64,000 nt of DNA, taken from assembly GCA_016192995.1 (NCBI GenBank), contig JACPTB010000001.1:65110-129109 (forward strand), written 5' to 3'. Below are positions 7,349-64,000 of the stretch, in pieces. A program made the position numbers and the translations under genes. The notes beneath the pieces are model-generated. The model did no database searches and had not been told where the DNA came from. It was given only the letters and a program-made list of their open reading frames with translations. Origin of the DNA: Candidatus Woesearchaeota archaeon. Its GTDB lineage: Archaea; Nanobdellota; Nanobdellia; Woesearchaeales; DSVV01. How positions within the stretch are numbered: the stretch's first letter is position 1; each line of letters begins with the position of its first letter.

Positions 7349-8035
7349 ATGGCTAAAGCAACTAAAACACAAACACGTGTAGCAAATTGGAAGAAGAAGA
7401 AGTTAATTCCTATTTATACCGATAACACTTTTAATAATTTCTTGCTTGGAGAAACTATGGTTGAAACTCCTCAGGCATTAGTGGGAAGATGCATTTCTAC
7501 AAATTTGATGTTATTAACTGGTGATATGAAGAAACAAAACGTTAACCTTAAATTCAAAGTTACGCGCGCTGAAAACAACAGAGCAATTGCTGAGCCTCTT
7601 GGTTATTATACTTCTTTTGCTTCAATAAAGCGTATGGTAAGGCGCGGCCGTGATAGAATAGATCTTTCATTCGTGGGTAAAACTGCAGATCATAAATCTG
7701 TTCGTATAAAACCAATACTGATTACAAAATCATCAACAACAAGGGCAGTATTAACCTCATTACGGAAAAACTGCTTAGTATTAGTCACTAATTTTCTTAA
7801 AGAAACAAAATATGCTGATACGTTTGTTCATGTTATGAGCAATCGCCTTCAAAAATATTTAAATGATAGCCTTAAACGAATTTACCCTCTGCGAACTGTT
7901 GAAATTCGTGTTCTTGAGTTAGAAAAAGTAAAAGGCGCAGCAAAAGTTTCTGAAGCAATTAAAGAAATTCAGCCAGAACAGCCTTTAGAAGAAGCTGCAG
8001 AAGTAACGCAGCCAGAAGAAGCAGTTTCAGAATAG
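7349..8035 (+). CDS. rps3ae: 30S ribosomal protein S3Ae (eS1)
   Basis: Conserved W..K.W..I.AP / VGR..E..L.DLTGD pattern (ALVGRCISTNLMLLTGDMKK) and acidic C-terminal tail. Confidence 0.85.
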   Translation: MAKATKTQTRVANWKKKKLIPIYTDNTFNNFLLGETMVETPQALVGRCISTNLMLLTGDMKKQNVNLKFKVTRAENNRAIAEPLGYYTSFASIKRMVRRGRDRIDLSFVGKTADHKSVRIKPILITKSSTTRAVLTSLRKNCLVLVTNFLKETKYADTFVHVMSNRLQKYLNDSLKRIYPLRTVEIRVLELEKVKGAAKVSEAIKEIQPEQPLEEAAEVTQPEEAVSE

Positions 8036-8053
8036 ATCAAGGCAACAATAAGG

Positions 8054-8061
8054 TATATAAA
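8054..8061 (+). promoter_or_regulatory. TATA-like box (TATATAAA) upstream of bud32
   Basis: About 26 nt upstream of ATG 8084. Confidence 0.4.
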
Positions 8062-8083
8062 TCTCATTACTATTTTTAGAAAT

Positions 8084-8674
8084 ATGAAACTCATCATGCA
8101 TGGTGCGGAAGCTAAGATTTATAGAGATAAAAATAAAATAATTAAGATCAGAGCTGAGAAAAAATACCGTTGCAGGGAATTAGATGAATCATTGCGTAAA
8201 CATCGCACAAGAAAAGAAGTGAAAATATTAGAAAAGATCGCAAAACTGAAGCTTGCTCCGAAATGTATATCATATAACGATGTTGATACTGTTGAAATGG
8301 AATTTGTTGAAGGAAAAAAACTCTCAGAACATCTTGAAAGACTCAAGTATAAACAGGTTTGTTTTATCCTTGGTCAAAAAATACGGCAGCTTCATGATCT
8401 TGAAATTATACATGGTGATTTAACAACAAGCAATTTAATATATGATGATCAAGAACATAAACTTTATTGCATTGATTTTGGTCTAAGCTATACTTCTACA
8501 AAGGACGAAGATAAAGCAGTTGATTTGCATGTATTGCATGAAGCACTGGTCAGTAAGCATTATAGCATTGCTGATAGGGCATTTAAAGAAGTCTTACAAG
8601 GGTATGATTCTAAAAAGGTTGAAAAAAAGTTAGTGTTAGTAGAATTACGAGGACGAAATAAACAGAAATCATAG
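8084..8674 (+). CDS. bud32: KEOPS complex kinase Bud32 (Kae1-associated kinase)
   Basis: About 196 aa atypical kinase. IIHGDLTTSNLIY catalytic loop and DFGLS motif. No Kae1 adjacent. Confidence 0.75.
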   Translation: MKLIMHGAEAKIYRDKNKIIKIRAEKKYRCRELDESLRKHRTRKEVKILEKIAKLKLAPKCISYNDVDTVEMEFVEGKKLSEHLERLKYKQVCFILGQKIRQLHDLEIIHGDLTTSNLIYDDQEHKLYCIDFGLSYTSTKDEDKAVDLHVLHEALVSKHYSIADRAFKEVLQGYDSKKVEKKLVLVELRGRNKQKS

Positions 8675-8829
8675 GTATGTAATAAGTCTTCTTCGGTTGT
8701 AGCGCCGGTTCAGCTTTTGAAGTGTATATCAATTGGATTTTTCTCTCTGGCACTCCGAAAAATCCTCGATAGTTACTAAGAAGAGCTTCACAAAATAGGC
8801 GCTAAAACCCCAGACTTATTACGTACGAT
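8675..8829. mobile_element. MITE, family 1 (TIR GTA(C/T)GTAATAAGTC...GGCGCTAAAACCCCAGACTTATTACGTAC)
   Basis: Terminal inverted repeats. Internal conserved core GGATTTTTCTCTCTGGCACTCCGAAAAATCC at 8724-8754. 7-bp TSD ATCATAG (8668-8674, which includes the bud32 TAG stop, and 8831-8837). Confidence 0.75.
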
Positions 8830-49664: not shown

Positions 49665-49761
49665 CGGGCCAGACGAGATTTGAACTCGCGACCACCCGAT
49701 TTCTTAGGAAGCTGAGCATCCTTAAAAGTCGGGTGCTCTATCCAGGCTGAGCCACTGGCCC
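49665..49761 (-). tRNA. tRNA-Lys (anticodon TTT) with about 22-nt canonical-position intron
   Basis: RC GGGCCAGTGGCTCAGCCTGGATAGAGCACCCGACTTTTA[intron]ATCGGGTGGTCGCGAGTTCAAATCTCGTCTGGCCCG. Acceptor, D, anticodon and T stems all pair. Confidence 0.7.
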
Positions 49762-57233: not shown

Positions 57234-57479
57234 ATGGAAAATGCTATTGAAAGTACTCAAAAAGAGAAAACTATATTAGTTGAAATTGAATATGCTGAAG
57301 ATTTTCAAGAGTTTATACTTTTAAATAATGATGTTCTTGTAGATGAAGAGAATAAGAATATGATTATGAATGCAGAAAAGGAGGAACTTTTGCAAGTTGT
57401 TAAAGAGATTGGTTCAACACCAATAGTAATCAAATCAGTTCATAAATATGATGAAAACTTCTTGCTAAAGAATTTTTAA
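57234..57479 (+). CDS. small acidic hypothetical protein
   Basis: Its TAA stop is immediately followed by the ATG (57480) of the next ORF. Confidence 0.3.
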   Translation: MENAIESTQKEKTILVEIEYAEDFQEFILLNNDVLVDEENKNMIMNAEKEELLQVVKEIGSTPIVIKSVHKYDENFLLKNF

Positions 57480-57953
57480 ATGCCATCAGTGAAGTTCCGA
57501 TATAGAATACTTACAGATATACATTTTGTAAGGTGGTTAATCAATAAGGATAAGACTTGTTTTCTTAAACTAACACATATTAAAGCTTCTTCTGCAGATT
57601 GTAAGAAAGAACATAATGTAATTGTTGAAGAAGATGCACAAAAAATAATTGAAGAAAAAAATATCAAAGAATCAAATTTAAGGGCAGCGTTTAAAGGATT
57701 ATCGATACCGCATGAAATAACTAAAGTTCTACAAGATAAATACGACAGGATGATTCTATTTGCAATAGTTTTGGCTACAGATAAACCATATTTTACTTAT
57801 ATATTAACAACTAAGGATCACATTAGTAAGTATAATGGATCGTTACATATTAAAAATGTAAAAAGTATTTCTGTAAAATCAGAAGAAGAAGCACTAAAAA
57901 TCATTGATATTCTTTGGCAAGAATTTTGTTTTATAAGGGAAACTAAAAGATAA
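57480..57953 (+). CDS. hypothetical protein
   Basis: 157-aa ORF coupled to the upstream small ORF. Confidence 0.35.
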   Translation: MPSVKFRYRILTDIHFVRWLINKDKTCFLKLTHIKASSADCKKEHNVIVEEDAQKIIEEKNIKESNLRAAFKGLSIPHEITKVLQDKYDRMILFAIVLATDKPYFTYILTTKDHISKYNGSLHIKNVKSISVKSEEEALKIIDILWQEFCFIRETKR

Positions 57954-60857: not shown

Positions 60858-61733
60858 ATGAAGCATATTTTTATCTTGATCGTTGGCGTTATTCTTGTTA
60901 TGTTTTTAGCACCTCAAATATTTGGCGCTACTATTTCAGGAACGATATATGATTATTCTCTTAAAAAAGGAGATAATATTATCGTCACTATTGATTCAGT
61001 GCCGCCGCAGAAATACATCTCAAAAGAGGGAACCTATCATTTTACCATTGGATTTGGAGAATATCTCCTTGAAGCTAAACGCTATGAAGATAATGTATTG
61101 CGAGATGCAGCTTCGGAAAAGATTGTTATTGATAAAGAAGGAGATTACCTTGTAGATCTTATTTTATTTCCTTCATTTGAACAGGAACAAAAACTTATCC
61201 AGGACTTGCCTGAAAATTTTGATCCTTATGAAGAAAAGAAAACACCCTATAAAGTTATATTTGCTGTAGCAGCTTTTCTCTTGTTAATCATAATAATTTA
61301 TTATATTAAACATGCTGAAAAGGAAGTAACAGATGAACAAAAAGAAAAATTGCGTAATGGCAAAAAGAATAAGAAGAAAACAGGAAAAAAACAATCAAAA
61401 CCAGCAAAAGATGAAAAGAGTCAGGAGCAAAATCAAAAGCAAGAAACTCAACAAAAGGCATCTCTAGCCTTTTCAGCAGCGGCAGATACTAACCTTTCCC
61501 AGGGCGAACAACCATTATTCGAAACAACCCAAGGAGATAAATATTTTCAACAAATCACTGCACTACTCAAAGAACAGCAACGTGTTACTCAAAAAGAAAT
61601 TAGAAAGCAAATTCCTTTATCTGAAGCAAAGATTTCATTGATTATTACTGAAATGGAAACAAAGGGAATCGTGCAAAAGATTAAAAAAGGCAGAGGAAAT
61701 ATTATTGTTTGGAAGGGCAATCAGAATAATTAG
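60858..61733 (+). CDS. membrane-anchored protein with C-terminal winged-helix DNA-binding domain
   Basis: Signal/TM helix at N-terminus, extracellular beta domain, second TM (AVAAFLLLIIIIYYI), Lys-rich linker, C-terminal wHTH-like segment QKEIRKQIPLSEAKISLIITEMETKGIVQK. Confidence 0.45.
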   Translation: MKHIFILIVGVILVMFLAPQIFGATISGTIYDYSLKKGDNIIVTIDSVPPQKYISKEGTYHFTIGFGEYLLEAKRYEDNVLRDAASEKIVIDKEGDYLVDLILFPSFEQEQKLIQDLPENFDPYEEKKTPYKVIFAVAAFLLLIIIIYYIKHAEKEVTDEQKEKLRNGKKNKKKTGKKQSKPAKDEKSQEQNQKQETQQKASLAFSAAADTNLSQGEQPLFETTQGDKYFQQITALLKEQQRVTQKEIRKQIPLSEAKISLIITEMETKGIVQKIKKGRGNIIVWKGNQNN

Positions 61734-62000
61734 TTTTACTGTTTTAAAAGTATTTATAAATAAAATTGATATTTACGATAAGATGAAGTCCGAAACAAGA
61801 AAAAAGGTAAAAGAACTTGTAAAAGGTGTAATCCTTTCAAAAATTGATAATTATAGTGCTGAAACTGAATACAAACCATTTTTTCAGGCAATTTTCACAA
61901 AAGAGCAAATCTTAACTCACACTATTGTCCATTTATTCCTGAAAAAGATTTTCCACAATTATTAAAATTCGCTCAAGAAAAAGGAGTAATTCCCTAATAA

Positions 62001-62687
62001 TCATGCCTTTATCATATGAAATATAATCTCAGCATAAGGTTGTCTATCTCTTTCTGTTCTATTCAAAACAGGTCTTTTAAACTGCTCAACTATCTTTAAA
62101 CCACTTTTCTCTGCGATTCTTGGATAGAGATTATATTTATCATTAGCTACAATAAAGAAATCTCCATTATCTTTAATAAATTGACTTATGTTTATGAAAA
62201 CCTTACTTATGCCTTCAACATACTCATCTTTCGCTTTTTGTCCTTGACCTTTAAATAAAGGACTTATTTCTTTATTGTCTTTTCTTGAAATGCCAAATAA
62301 CTCGTAAGCGTAAGCATGTTGCTCATGGTAATCTATTTGACCAACATAAGGTGGAGAAGTAAAAATTCCATCTATTTTTTTATTTACTAAAAGCTTGTAA
62401 AAGTCAGGATTTTGCTTTTTGATTTCTCCAAAAATATCAGCTTCTCTTGAATCTCCATGAATAACACCTGTATATACTTTCTTCTTGATATTTGAAAAAT
62501 CCTTTAATCGTGCAATTGTATCAAACGTATATCTTCTCAAATGCCCGTTTATGGTATTTAGTGGAGTGCATATTTTTTTATGCTTTCTGCAGTAATATGG
62601 TCCTGTTTGTGGCTCTTTTAATGTTGCTAAATCTGAATGGGTTGTTGCCCTGCATGACCTCGCAGTTCTGCTTAATACTATTCTCAT
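62001..62687 (-). CDS. DNA methyltransferase, catalytic-motif IV half (SPPY), probably N4-C or N6-A
   Basis: GDSRE ... IDGIFTSPPY motif IV. In frame with, and separated by a single TAA from, the upstream ORF at 62763-63599. Confidence 0.55.
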   Translation of the reverse strand: MRIVLSRTARSCRATTHSDLATLKEPQTGPYYCRKHKKICTPLNTINGHLRRYTFDTIARLKDFSNIKKKVYTGVIHGDSREADIFGEIKKQNPDFYKLLVNKKIDGIFTSPPYVGQIDYHEQHAYAYELFGISRKDNKEISPLFKGQGQKAKDEYVEGISKVFINISQFIKDNGDFFIVANDKYNLYPRIAEKSGLKIVEQFKRPVLNRTERDRQPYAEIIFHMIKA

Positions 62688-62762
62688 AATATTCTTTATT
62701 TTCTCATCTTTTTCATTCTCAATTAATTTTAAGTAATAAAATAATTCTTGTTTAACTCTCTT

Positions 62763-63599
62763 TTAGAACCATTTTGACAAGAAACTATTCATCTTTTTTT
62801 CGTCAAGAAGTATTGTTTTATCTTTAGTTCCATTCTTTTCAAAAAACTCTTTATTTTCTTTAAGGAATTGCTTTAGTTTTTCGTCTCCGTATTTTTCTTC
62901 CTCAAGTTCTCCCTTAAACACTCTTCTTTTAAATTCTGGATTTGGGAAGAATCTTTTGTTAAACTCATTCAGTTTTTCTTTAAGTTCAAAGTCAAATGTA
63001 TCATCAAACACTTTATTACTAAAATTAATAGTTTGAGTTAAATTATTCTTTAAAGTATAGTTTAACTTGAAAATATCATATTCATCTAACTTAACTTTAG
63101 AAATCATACAGTTAAAATCTGAAATGTCAATACCTATGGAATGTAACCCTAATTCTGAGGATTGTACCAACGTTGTACCACTCCCCATAAATGGATCAAG
63201 AATGATGTTTCCAGATTTAAAGAAAATCTGTTTTTTGTAGTCATTTAAATGGGAATCTAAAAAGTACTCAACTAATTGAGGTATAAACTTTCCTTTATAG
63301 GGATGCAATCTATGAACGTGCTTAGTTGTGTCAGATTCTCTTAATTGAGAGAAAGATAATCCCCAGTTTAAATCATTTCCTAATTGACTTTTCCAAGATT
63401 CTTGTTTTTTTACTAAATGTTCATCATAATATTGCTTCAGTTCATCTAAATTAATTTTTATTTTCTTTTCTTCATCCAAATACTTTTTAATTTTTGCATA
63501 TTGAATAAGATAGCTTATATTTGAAGTAGTTACAGGTCTATCTAAATAATCGCTTGCCCATTGCGATGCTTGACCTAAAGATAAAAGTTCTTGGCTCAT
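62763..63599 (-). CDS. DNA methyltransferase, SAM-binding half (motif X/I: HPYKGKFIPQLVEYFL ... ILDPFMGSGTT)
   Basis: Classic DPFxGSGTT motif I with preceding motif X. Start ATG overlaps the stop of the upstream RHH ORF (ATGA). Confidence 0.55.
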   Translation of the reverse strand: MSQELLSLGQASQWASDYLDRPVTTSNISYLIQYAKIKKYLDEEKKIKINLDELKQYYDEHLVKKQESWKSQLGNDLNWGLSFSQLRESDTTKHVHRLHPYKGKFIPQLVEYFLDSHLNDYKKQIFFKSGNIILDPFMGSGTTLVQSSELGLHSIGIDISDFNCMISKVKLDEYDIFKLNYTLKNNLTQTINFSNKVFDDTFDFELKEKLNEFNKRFFPNPEFKRRVFKGELEEEKYGDEKLKQFLKENKEFFEKNGTKDKTILLDEKKMNSFLSKWF

Positions 63600-63736
63600 T
63601 TTTCCACTTTTTTTGTTTTTTCTTCCATGAATACTTCTATGCTTCTTGATAATGCCACTGCATTTTTCTTACAAAATTCTTTATATTTTTCGTAGGTATC
63701 TTCATCAAGACTTAATGTCACATTTCTTTGTCCCAT
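63596..63736 (-). CDS. ribbon-helix-helix (CopG-like) small protein, 46 aa
   Basis: Manually translated MGQRNVTLSLDEDTYEKYKEFCKKNAVALSRSIEVFMEEKTKKVEK. Beta-strand VTLSLD then two helices. Not in the ORF track (under 60 aa). Confidence 0.4.
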   Translation of the reverse strand: MGQRNVTLSLDEDTYEKYKEFCKKNAVALSRSIEVFMEEKTKKVEK

Positions 63737-63903
63737 AATCAACCCCTCAAATGAATACAAATGTATATAATTGAGTTACTATATAAAGTTTTCTGACTAT
63801 TTACCAATACTTGATTTTTCCCGGAAATCTTTCCAATTTTGTCGGAAATTTTGATGTTTTTTTAGCGATGGGTTTATTAAGGAGTTTTCAGGCTAAATAT
63901 CTT

Positions 63904-64000
63904 ATGAAATTGCTGAGAACTCTAACAAAATATAGTTTACTATTGATCGTTGGTGTTGTCTTACTATATTATTTTAGATATGAAATTACCGGTTACACTA
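63904..64000 (+). CDS. membrane protein, N-terminal fragment continuing beyond the window
   Basis: MKLLRTLTKYSLLLIVGVVLLYYFRYEITGYT. Preceded by the 21-nt motif copy at 63857-63877. Confidence 0.3.
   Translation, partial: MKLLRTLTKYSLLLIVGVVLLYYFRYEITGYT

Follow-up and report, generated by a model that had tools for sequence, protein, structure and literature searches.

The interrupted methyltransferase gene close to one end of the window (by which we mean the whole 64,000-nucleotide stretch of Candidatus Woesearchaeota contig JACPTB010000001.1 that was analysed) very probably marks a decaying type II restriction-modification (R-M) cassette of the TdeIII kind, in which the endonuclease gene (R) was deleted and the methyltransferase gene (M) then acquired a nonsense mutation very recently. 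In its present form the cassette is a non-working remnant of a member of this kind of system, with a TAA in M and about 200 of 253 R codons lost (Table 1). It represents an ordinary dying defence system, and not a case of recoding or a new kind of enzyme.

Table 1 Features of the decayed cassette, in window coordinates.
Feature	Coordinates	Strand	Remarks
R-M cassette extent	61746..63793	-	Bounded by the DNA homology to L004, the closest intact relative
TdeIII-family restriction endonuclease remnant, codons 1-52 of about 253	61783..61938	+	96% amino-acid identity to the L004 endonuclease
Deletion scar	61939..62000		8 unrelated codons and the stub stop (61963-61965), then 35 nt to the M stop
Methyltransferase frame, interrupted	63599-62001	-	Only in-frame stop is the TAA at 62765-62763
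Methyltransferase codons 1-278	62766..63599	-	N-terminal helical domain, motif X (HPYKGKF), motif I (DPFMGSGTT)
Premature TAA, codon 279	62763..62765	-	Ancestral TCA (Ser), single C>A
Methyltransferase codons 280-532 and stop	62001..62762	-	Helical insertion, Cys/His cluster, motif IV (SPPY), C-terminal strands
46-aa probable ribbon-helix-helix regulator, intact	63596..63736	-	ATG 63736-63734, TGA 63598-63596
Shine-Dalgarno-like GAGGGG	63743..63748	-	6 nt before the start codon of the 46-aa ORF
Perfect palindrome ATACA-TT-TGTAT, ATACATTTGTAT	63755..63766	-	Between the TATA box and the Shine-Dalgarno/start codon
Archaeal TATA box TTTATATA	63780..63787	-	5' neighbour is an A-rich BRE-like stretch

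One methyltransferase frame interrupted by a premature TAA

A preliminary description of this DNA had reported a 46-aa ORF (63736-63596) overlapping a methyltransferase start by ATGA, the motifs HPYKGKF and DPFMGSGTT in the first methyltransferase ORF and GIFTSPPY in the second, and all of these are borne out by the sequence, with GIFTSPPY located in the C-terminal part. Its view that the two ORFs form one methyltransferase in a single frame, broken by one TAA, also stands: the N-terminal ORF (63599..62763) encodes 278 aa, and the 3' part continues in the same frame with no second stop as far as 62001. Codons 280-532 are no longer translated from the methyltransferase's own start. In Pfam searches, with the layout taken from the alignment of intact relatives, codons 1-278 correspond to profile positions 99-219 of PF01555 (E 6e-14) and the C half to positions 1-70, so that the halves are complementary pieces of one domain; the rejoined protein matches the profile at E 3e-17.

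Motif I (DPFxGSGT) and motif IV ((S/D)PPY) are common to the window enzyme and the beta-class N6/N4 amino-methyltransferases of PF01555 (M.PvuII, M.RsrI, M.MboIIA, CcrM), whereas the half-domains of the window enzyme stand in reversed order, X-I first and IV last, and an insertion of about 175 residues (roughly 176-350) carries an invariant Cys/His cluster. This motif order, earlier called unusual, is the norm for a large and already modelled family, as the closest intact relative (P0001, 93% identical) matches the PADLOC MTase_II model PDLC03249 from end to end (positions 13-538 of 541, E 1e-222). With the rejoined methyltransferase, NCBIfam gave weak matches only, far below the curated cut-offs. 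The best matches of the methyltransferase profile in a PDB sequence search were N4-cytosine and beta-class adenine methyltransferases, over motif I only, and the matches of a fold search were all generic Rossmann methyltransferases that share this linear order, e.g., Trm11, at TM-scores up to about 0.26-0.4.

Two sets of relatives served for comparison, 80 taken from reference genomes and the 120 nearest proteins in the database. All 120 proteins, at 72-93% identity, are uninterrupted and about 530 aa long, and in 80 of 80 genome loci one ORF of 513-594 aa spans the junction, the shortest being clipped by a contig end, well beyond what chance would give. The family is distributed over DPANN archaea, CPR bacteria and many other phyla, in more than 590 species-level genomes. 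At the position of the TAA, at least 90% of the aligned relatives have Ser, and both of the closest DNA relatives, L004 and L005, have TCA at codon 279 with identical flanking codons; the TAA therefore arose by a single C>A nonsense mutation. It is the sole lesion in the gene. Across 191 near-invariant columns, the window methyltransferase deviates once (G446S; family mean 0.72), and dN/dS against L004 is around 0.06 in both halves (N half 0.074, C half 0.053), compared with 0.056 between two intact copies. Judged from this divergence, the low dN/dS in both halves and the single deviating column indicate that the nonsense mutation is very recent, and among the four options listed in the preliminary description it is recent pseudogenisation that the evidence favours.

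That the TAA differs from TCA by a single base would also fit a sequencing or assembly artefact that hides an intact gene. However, the identical TAA is present in three independently assembled contigs from three sequencing runs (SRR12113418, SRR12113428, and SRR12113419), which match the window at 100% identity over 1.7-8 kb, and records of the exact 278-aa product exist for four contigs. The neighbouring endonuclease deletion is likewise found in L001 and L002, the two assemblies that reach the endonuclease, so the cassette is really degraded, and the sequencing error proposed earlier is extremely unlikely.

Readthrough or recoding of the TAA, through a suppressor tRNA, an alternative code or programmed readthrough, would allow the full-length enzyme to be made, and the frame past the TAA is indeed perfectly preserved. 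In its default mode, ARAGORN moreover reports a 'tRNA-Stop (tta)' at 49665-49761. This candidate suppressor was rejected: the Rfam alignment puts a 23-nt insertion in its anticodon loop, and ARAGORN with introns allowed identifies a tRNA-Lys(UUU) whose 22-nt intron is canonically placed. It was the sole such call, and no suppressor tRNA is present. Inspection of the window's other genes found TAA to be a genuine stop, and the commonest one: of the 49 ORFs that are 150 aa or longer, 27 end in it. The ribosomal L1, PIN, and RpoA' genes, each with a further gene downstream in its own reading frame, stop at TAA, and the window's same-frame ORF pairs are distinct genes. Since relatives also encode the Ser with an ordinary TCA, the recoding or readthrough suggested earlier has very little to commend it.

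Alternatively, the two halves could function as separate polypeptides, one of 278 aa that binds AdoMet and a catalytic one of 228 aa that restarts at ATG 62687, the first start codon past the TAA, 25 codons downstream and in frame. Natural two-subunit cytosine-5 methyltransferases are known (M.AquI and M.EcoHK31I). Neither half of the window enzyme is further damaged, dN/dS is low in both, and the AlphaFold model places the break in the helical insertion, outside the Rossmann core. However, a very recent mutation would leave dN/dS just as low, and the gene is split in none of the 80 genome loci and none of the 120 database relatives. A restart at 62687 drops residues 279-304 (26 residues), among which R281, V282, Q284, E285, L286, Y289, and N303 are invariant and which include a helix modelled with pLDDT >90; no Shine-Dalgarno sequence precedes this ATG, in contrast to the GAGGGG before the start of the 46-aa ORF; and with R deleted, nothing is left to protect against. 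With no relative split and seven invariant residues missing from the C-terminal ORF, we regard the two-subunit enzyme of the preliminary description as highly improbable.

Remnant of a TdeIII-family endonuclease beside the methyltransferase gene

The preliminary description found no restriction enzyme nearby. However, 36 nt beyond the methyltransferase stop lies a 52-codon remnant of the cognate endonuclease gene, convergent with the methyltransferase gene. The stub alone (61783-61938) matches PF09520 (RE_TdeIII) at E 2e-4, and the L004 endonuclease, from whose residues 1-52 the identity in Table 1 is taken, matches the same profile over positions 2-242 of 242 (E 3e-62). DNA homology of the stub to L004 stops at 61938, and the stub ORF as it stands, scar codons and stop included, covers 61783-61965. 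The scar has no homology to L004, L011 or L017 and occupies the place of about 600 nt of endonuclease gene (about 200 codons gone), a place filled in these three relatives by a complete endonuclease gene encoding 253-259 aa. A reading of 61939-62011 as the frame-shifted C-terminus of the endonuclease was rejected, as it is unlike any of 72 C-termini. No family for the endonuclease was found in NCBIfam, and a PDB sequence search with it gave no match.

Throughout the family, the two genes are linked. An endonuclease of the TdeIII family (about 260 aa) adjoins the methyltransferase in 72 of 81 loci, at a median gap of about 4 nt, and this neighbour also matches PADLOC REase_II models. Intermediate stages of decay exist among the relatives, with R in three fragments beside an intact M in L075, and M present with no R within 6 kb in L019, L024, and L072.

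The last three loci, as well as the intact state of the gene for the 46-aa protein, would also suit a methyltransferase that had always been an orphan under the control of a regulator, in which case the stop codon would be a switch between on and off states or a neutral loss with no connection to a restriction enzyme. Against this stand the 52 TdeIII-family codons of the window itself, which have the position and orientation seen in the nearest relatives L004, L011, and L017, and the presence of the endonuclease in the great majority of loci; moreover, a base substitution cannot serve as a reversible switch, and no repeat tract contains the break. An always-orphan enzyme is thus most unlikely, and the earlier label of an orphan or defence-island methyltransferase gives way to that of a family linked to a TdeIII-type endonuclease, of which a truncated copy remains at 61783-61965.

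The upstream gene, promoter region and cassette limits

When L004 is compared with the window by blastn, two segments match, 63793-62012 (91.6% identity) and 61938-61746 (88%), and no other match is found in either flank, the flanks being unrelated. Within these limits, the 46-aa ORF, whose stop overlaps the methyltransferase ATG (63599-63597) as ATGA, probably encodes a ribbon-helix-helix (RHH) regulator. An RHH gene lies upstream of M, overlapping its start, in 10 of 15 archaeal relatives, and the coupled RHH ORF of the preliminary description is indeed conserved as a partner whose translation overlaps that of M, and it is probably RHH-like. In Pfam, DUF6364 appears below threshold in all ten members of the 46-aa family (best E 2.9e-5; 24.9 bits for the window protein, cut-off 27.3) and CcdA weakly in three of the ten; the 46-aa protein matched no helix-turn-helix (HTH) family there. 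Aligned with hhalign, the family profile is collinear with CopG end to end over 39 columns (E 2e-4, probability 45%). A PDB sequence search with the RHH profile returned chance matches only, and single-sequence AlphaFold modelled the protein as one long helix, which is uninformative on the fold.

The TATA box TTTATATA is kept in nine of the ten upstream regions aligned from relatives with an RHH gene and is the putative promoter element of the cassette; directly 5' of it, a GGNCC site with variable N is conserved in nine archaeal relatives. The palindrome ATACATTTGTAT is a candidate RHH operator. Its core, ACATTTG[TA]AT, occurs at the same position in 11 of 12 RHH loci (three copies of the window sequence counted), was not found upstream of the methyltransferase gene in six archaeal loci without an RHH gene, and has only two occurrences elsewhere in 877 kb; among the loci compared, ATACATTTGTAT and the RHH gene co-occur. 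The Shine-Dalgarno-like sequence is kept as GAGG(G/T) in relatives.

Proposed course of decay and comparison with known systems

In its intact form, the cassette consists of a putative promoter, a small probable RHH regulator, an amino-methyltransferase of about 532 aa (M), and a TdeIII-family endonuclease of about 255 aa (R), the latter convergent with M in the window's clade. M would protect host sites, probably through N4-methylcytosine in GGNCC, R would cut unmethylated incoming DNA, and the RHH protein would repress the operon from the palindrome overlapping the transcription start. Loss of M is lethal while R is active, and it is on this established lethality that we base the order of events, R first and then M. 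Deletion of about 200 R codons would have come first, removing both the defence function and the lethality of M loss; M would then have gained TCA>TAA at codon 279, a change that is very recent and common to the sampled population, in which a minority intact allele may nevertheless persist. An apparently split orphan methyltransferase would thereby be a routine stage in the life of a mobile R-M cassette, in which the endonuclease is lost first and the methyltransferase next, and the window would offer a cleanly dated example of the second step. Annotation should label 63599-62001 a pseudogene and 61783-61965 a fragment of an endonuclease gene, with no alternative genetic code to infer.

As the probable target site we take GGNCC, presumably the specificity of TdeIII according to REBASE/Pfam; the GGNCC site conserved beside the archaeal TATA box is an indirect hint at it, although specificity can vary within an endonuclease family. 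Literature searches for GGNCC returned m5C enzymes only, and neither the TdeIII specificity nor the methylation type found confirmation there. In the window, GGNCC is mildly under-represented (24 observed, 39 expected, z = -2.4), and GGCC, CTAG, and GANTC show equal or stronger depletion. Avoidance of GGNCC, being weak and unspecific, was dropped as evidence.

The cassette is of a known kind, belonging to a common TdeIII-type R-M family whose methyltransferase is already modelled (PDLC03249). Like the TdeIII system of Treponema denticola (R.TdeIII = TDE0911, M = TDE0909), the systems of the window's relatives are two-gene type II systems, mobile between distant hosts, and their endonuclease matches RE_TdeIII over the whole profile; by analogy, the partner they share suggests that the window M is homologous to M.TdeIII (TDE0909). 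The published copy in H. pylori PeCan4, a horizontally spread relative with 53% (M) and 62% (R) identity to T. denticola, shows the same mobility (PMC3467074), and TDE0911 is a working restriction barrier (PMC12878829, PMC8265222). In contrast to TdeIII of T. denticola, the window copy is dead, with R reduced to 52 codons and M carrying a nonsense codon. The archaeal copies have an RHH gene before M, and none is mentioned for the Treponema and Helicobacter systems in the descriptions consulted. The host of the window's cassette is an AT-rich archaeon, apparently of the DPANN group.

In R-M systems regulated by C proteins (PvuII, BamHI, AhdI, Esp1396I, and Csp231I), a small DNA-binding protein heads the cassette and a palindrome lies in its own promoter, an arrangement that the 46-aa protein and its conserved candidate operator resemble. 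However, known C proteins are HTH activator-repressors, usually co-transcribed with R (review PMC3874152), whereas the regulator in the window looks like an RHH protein and is coupled to M, with R convergent. A palindrome placed between the TATA box and the start codon points to plain repression. The RHH repressors of plasmid and toxin-antitoxin operons (CopG, Omega, CcdA, and PaaR) are of the same size, 45-46 aa with the window protein collinear to CopG, and likewise stand at the head of an 'addiction' operon whose promoter contains a palindrome; in toxin-antitoxin systems, RHH regulators act strictly as repressors (review PMC3874152). Unlike them, the window protein reaches no curated RHH family in Pfam, and its partner is a methyltransferase, not a toxin.

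In the bacterial relatives L027 and L045, a small HTH protein occupies the same slot, that of L027 being a classical Xre-type HTH (PF01381, E 3e-17). We tentatively raise the possibility, on balance rather doubtful, that the regulator slot is interchangeable across domains, filled in DPANN archaea by an RHH protein that has a palindromic operator of its own, in about 20 CPR bacterial loci by a full LexA-like repressor, and in a few others by a classical Xre-type C protein. If the slot proteins truly control the cassette, the archaeal RHH protein would act as a 'controller protein' outside the HTH class, the LexA-like version would couple expression of the restriction system to DNA damage, and the conserved GGNCC site abutting the archaeal promoter could add a methylation-sensing feedback; the window would then hold a dead copy that still keeps its RHH gene and operator. 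A slot swappable between RHH, LexA-like, and Xre proteins across the more than 590 species-level genomes may merit separate study. The LexA-like slot protein combines a LexA DNA-binding domain with an S24 peptidase.

The interrupted methyltransferase frame

The statements made from the sequence in the preliminary description, namely that a small gene (RHH, for its probable ribbon-helix-helix product) is coupled to a DNA methyltransferase gene (M; 63599-62001, minus strand) split by one TAA, were all borne out by a minus-strand reading of 61500-64000 and by the ORF listing (table below). Single-frame translation of M contains exactly one internal stop; the next in-frame start, ATG 62687, lies 25 codons past it, and GIFTSPPY is located in the downstream part of the frame. 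In Pfam, the N half of M matches positions 99-219 of the PF01555 (N6_N4_Mtase) profile and the C half positions 1-70; the two ORFs therefore complement one another, each supplying half of the catalytic domain. In a 19-sequence alignment, at least 90% of the sequences have Ser in the stop column, and the nearest DNA relatives of M, at loci L004 (91.6% identical; the closest intact relative) and L005 (87%), carry TCA at this codon with identical flanking codons. The lesion in M is a single C>A transversion.

Features of the cassette in the window
Feature	Position	Strand	Basis or remark
Archaeal TATA box	63787-63780	-	conserved in aligned upstream regions
Perfect palindrome ATACA-TT-TGTAT	63766-63755	-	about expected transcription start
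GAGGGG Shine-Dalgarno	after palindrome	-	upstream alignment
RHH ORF, 46 aa	ATG 63736, TGA 63598-63596	-	sequence reading, ORF listing
M start ATG	63599-63597	-	ATGA overlap with RHH stop
First M ORF, 278 aa, with HPYKGKF and DPFMGSGTT	TAA at 62765-62763	-	ORF listing
Small ORF, member of endonuclease cluster	ATG 61783, end 61965	+	neighbour clustering

Thousands of relatives were retrieved in a protein search with the rejoined M as query; the top 120 share 72-93% identity over 99-100% of the query, are 525-550 aa long and, where they have a name, are annotated as DNA methyltransferases from Pacearchaeota, Woesearchaeota or Nanoarchaeota. At least 592 M loci turned up in a scan of species-representative genomes; among the 80 kept are DPANN archaea, numerous CPR/Patescibacteria and members of scattered other phyla. 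M also matches, over its full length, a type II model in PADLOC derived from REBASE (E 1e-222). Both the family and its X-I...IV motif order are known, and the order had been over-read as unusual. In the AlphaFold model of P0001, the closest intact protein at 93% identity (pLDDT 78, pTM 0.77), a Rossmann core with ordinary linear strand order is joined by a helical domain at the N terminus and by an insertion, also helical, of ~175 residues (roughly 176-350), which carries the invariant C316, H321, C337, H340 and C344. This Cys/His cluster (residues 316-344, window ~62654-62568, minus strand), modelled with two short strands, lies in the insertion that separates the AdoMet-binding half from the catalytic half and may form a zinc-binding element for DNA recognition. 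Foldseek against the PDB returned no close solved structure, only generic methyltransferases such as Trm11, and nothing in the structure search contradicts the sequence-based assignment of M.

A sequencing error, one of the options raised initially, is contradicted by independent assemblies. The exact 278-aa product is recorded for four contigs, three of which, from three sequencing runs, match the window at 100% identity, including the TAA, over stretches of 1.7 to 8 kb; the deletion in the neighbouring endonuclease gene (R) likewise marks a cassette that is truly degraded. Recoding, readthrough or suppression of TAA finds no support either, since TAA is the commonest stop in the window, ending 27 of 49 ORFs of at least 150 aa. 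Elsewhere in the window, consecutive long ORFs sharing a frame were different genes (S3Ae/RIO-type kinase, PIN protein/unknown, ribosomal L1/L10, RpoA'/RpoA'' and PIN-like protein/Rpo7), with the exception of one pair without Pfam matches. On the plus strand, an 81-aa and a 157-aa ORF (57234-57479 and 57480-57953) share a frame, with TAA followed directly by ATG; they have no Pfam match and could be two genes or one interrupted gene. Suppression gained apparent support from a 97-nt 'tRNA-Stop (tta)' reported by ARAGORN in default mode (49665-49761, minus strand). Aligned to Rfam tRNA (55.9 bits), this sequence shows 23 inserted nt in its anticodon loop, and ARAGORN with introns allowed reads it as tRNA-Lys(UUU) whose 22-nt intron occupies the canonical archaeal 37/38 position; it was rejected as a suppressor, and ARAGORN, with the Rfam check of this sole candidate, yields no suppressor tRNA. 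The same tRNA-Lys(UUU) would trip any automated recoding screen. A functional split enzyme restarting at ATG 62687 is unlikely: M is a single uninterrupted ORF in all 80 kept loci, the start has no preceding ribosome-binding site on reading the sequence, and the restart would lose residues 279-304, which include seven invariant positions and a helix modelled at high confidence by AlphaFold.

Endonuclease remnant and probable order of decay

Clustering of M neighbours across 81 loci revealed a ~260-aa protein adjoining M in 72 of them (median distance ~4 nt), on the same strand in 61 and convergent in 11. The L004 copy matches the whole Pfam RE_TdeIII profile (PF09520, E 3e-62) as well as PADLOC REase_II models. 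Codons 1-52 of the window's member are 96% identical to it, and DNA homology to L004, L011 and L017 ceases at 61938; the following eight codons and 35-nt spacer match nothing, the C-termini of 72 family members included. As L011 and L017 hold a complete 253-259-aa gene in this convergent position, ~600 nt of the endonuclease gene have been deleted from the window. The preliminary description, which saw no restriction enzyme nearby, had missed this stub (61783-61938, plus strand) beside M, and its presence contradicts a methyltransferase that was always an orphan. In L004, the convergent M and R are separated by an inserted 368-aa ORF (7622-8725, plus strand) without Pfam match, which L011 and L017 lack.

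The recognition site of TdeIII, and with it that of this cassette, is probably GGNCC (REBASE, Pfam). The product of M would be N4-methylcytosine, because an amino-methyltransferase acting on an adenine-free site must make this base, and the SPPY form of motif IV fits. TdeIII of Treponema denticola, namesake of the endonuclease family, acts as a working restriction barrier (PMC12878829, PMC8265222), and close relatives have been transferred to Helicobacter pylori (PMC3467074). Homology with L004 extends from 63793, exactly in the TATA region, to 61746, which is 37 nt before the endonuclease start, and the flanks outside 61746-63793 are unrelated; these limits mark a mobile unit, ~2 kb here versus ~2.65 kb intact.

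M shows one deviation (G446S) in 191 near-invariant columns of 121 sequences (family mean 0.72), and its dN/dS versus L004 is 0.074 upstream and 0.053 downstream of the stop (0.056 between two intact copies). Neither measure reveals further damage in M, and the nonsense mutation is therefore very young relative to the synonymous divergence of ~0.47. The expected earlier stages of decay are found in relatives: at L075 (2945-3712) the endonuclease lies in three fragments (53, 89 and 49 aa) adjoining an intact M, and at L019, L024 and L072 M is present with no endonuclease within ~6 kb. Type II systems exert post-segregational killing, and loss of M with active R is lethal (review PMC3874152), so R would have been lost first and M afterwards. 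Pseudogenisation, listed at the outset as one option, is the right answer, with TCA>TAA as the sole lesion in M beside the R deletion. The window carries a TdeIII-type regulator-M-R cassette in late decay, a dead member of an already known kind of restriction-modification (R-M) system; the finding is real and its explanation ordinary.

Probable regulator and promoter

Ten of 15 archaeal relatives encode the small protein upstream of M, in most cases overlapping it by the same 4 nt. Sub-threshold DUF6364 matches in all 10 members, weak CcdA matches in three and a collinear hhalign match of the family to CopG (E 2e-4) provide modest evidence for a ribbon-helix-helix fold of the 46-aa protein. 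Of the 12 RHH loci examined, the window sequence's three copies included, 11 have the palindrome core at the same position; it is absent upstream of M in the six archaeal loci without the RHH gene and occurs only twice elsewhere in 877 kb. The palindrome is a candidate RHH operator, through which, on the simplest reading, the RHH protein would autorepress the RHH-M operon. In nine archaeal relatives the BRE/TATA of the cassette promoter has a GGNCC sequence immediately on its 5' side. This sequence precedes the M start by 199 or 198 nt in L006, L008, L009, L010, L015 and L017 and by 40-54 nt in L007, L013 and L014. Its N varies (G, A, T, C) with GG and CC kept, and the window, L004 and L005 lack it; it may represent the target of the system itself, serving methylation-dependent feedback.

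The DNA-binding protein before M differs by lineage, being RHH in DPANN archaea and LexA-like in ~20 bacterial, mostly CPR, loci (including L020, L021, L026, L031, L034, L039, L041, L042 and L054). The LexA-like gene lies directly upstream of M on the same strand (median distance ~20 nt), and the two copies tested (L020, L039) combine LexA DNA-binding and S24 peptidase domains; the gene may be a cassette member or a conserved neighbour. In L027 and L045 a ~70-aa HTH protein fills the slot, that of L027 being confirmed as Xre-type (HTH_3). This lineage dependence is the only mildly new element, at the family level.

Surroundings and window composition

Divergent from the RHH gene, a gene at 63904-64000 (plus strand) runs off the window end into L001 (6041-4965), an assembly carrying sequence identical to the window. 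Its 358-aa product is a PLD-like protein with a membrane anchor and two HKD motifs (PF13091, E 1e-36) and is not a partner of M. Past the window end, L001 1593-4895 holds a second R-M pair that looks intact, consisting of a 290-aa beta-class methyltransferase (PF01555, with SPPY) and a 197-aa HNH endonuclease, as well as a nucleotidyltransferase/HEPN pair; the dead cassette is therefore located in a small defence island. Word counts in the whole window versus a second-order Markov model show strong under-representation of GANTC (119 observed, 191 expected, z = -4.9) and CTAG (56 observed, 101 expected, z = -4.5), and over-representation of GCNGC (z = +4.7).
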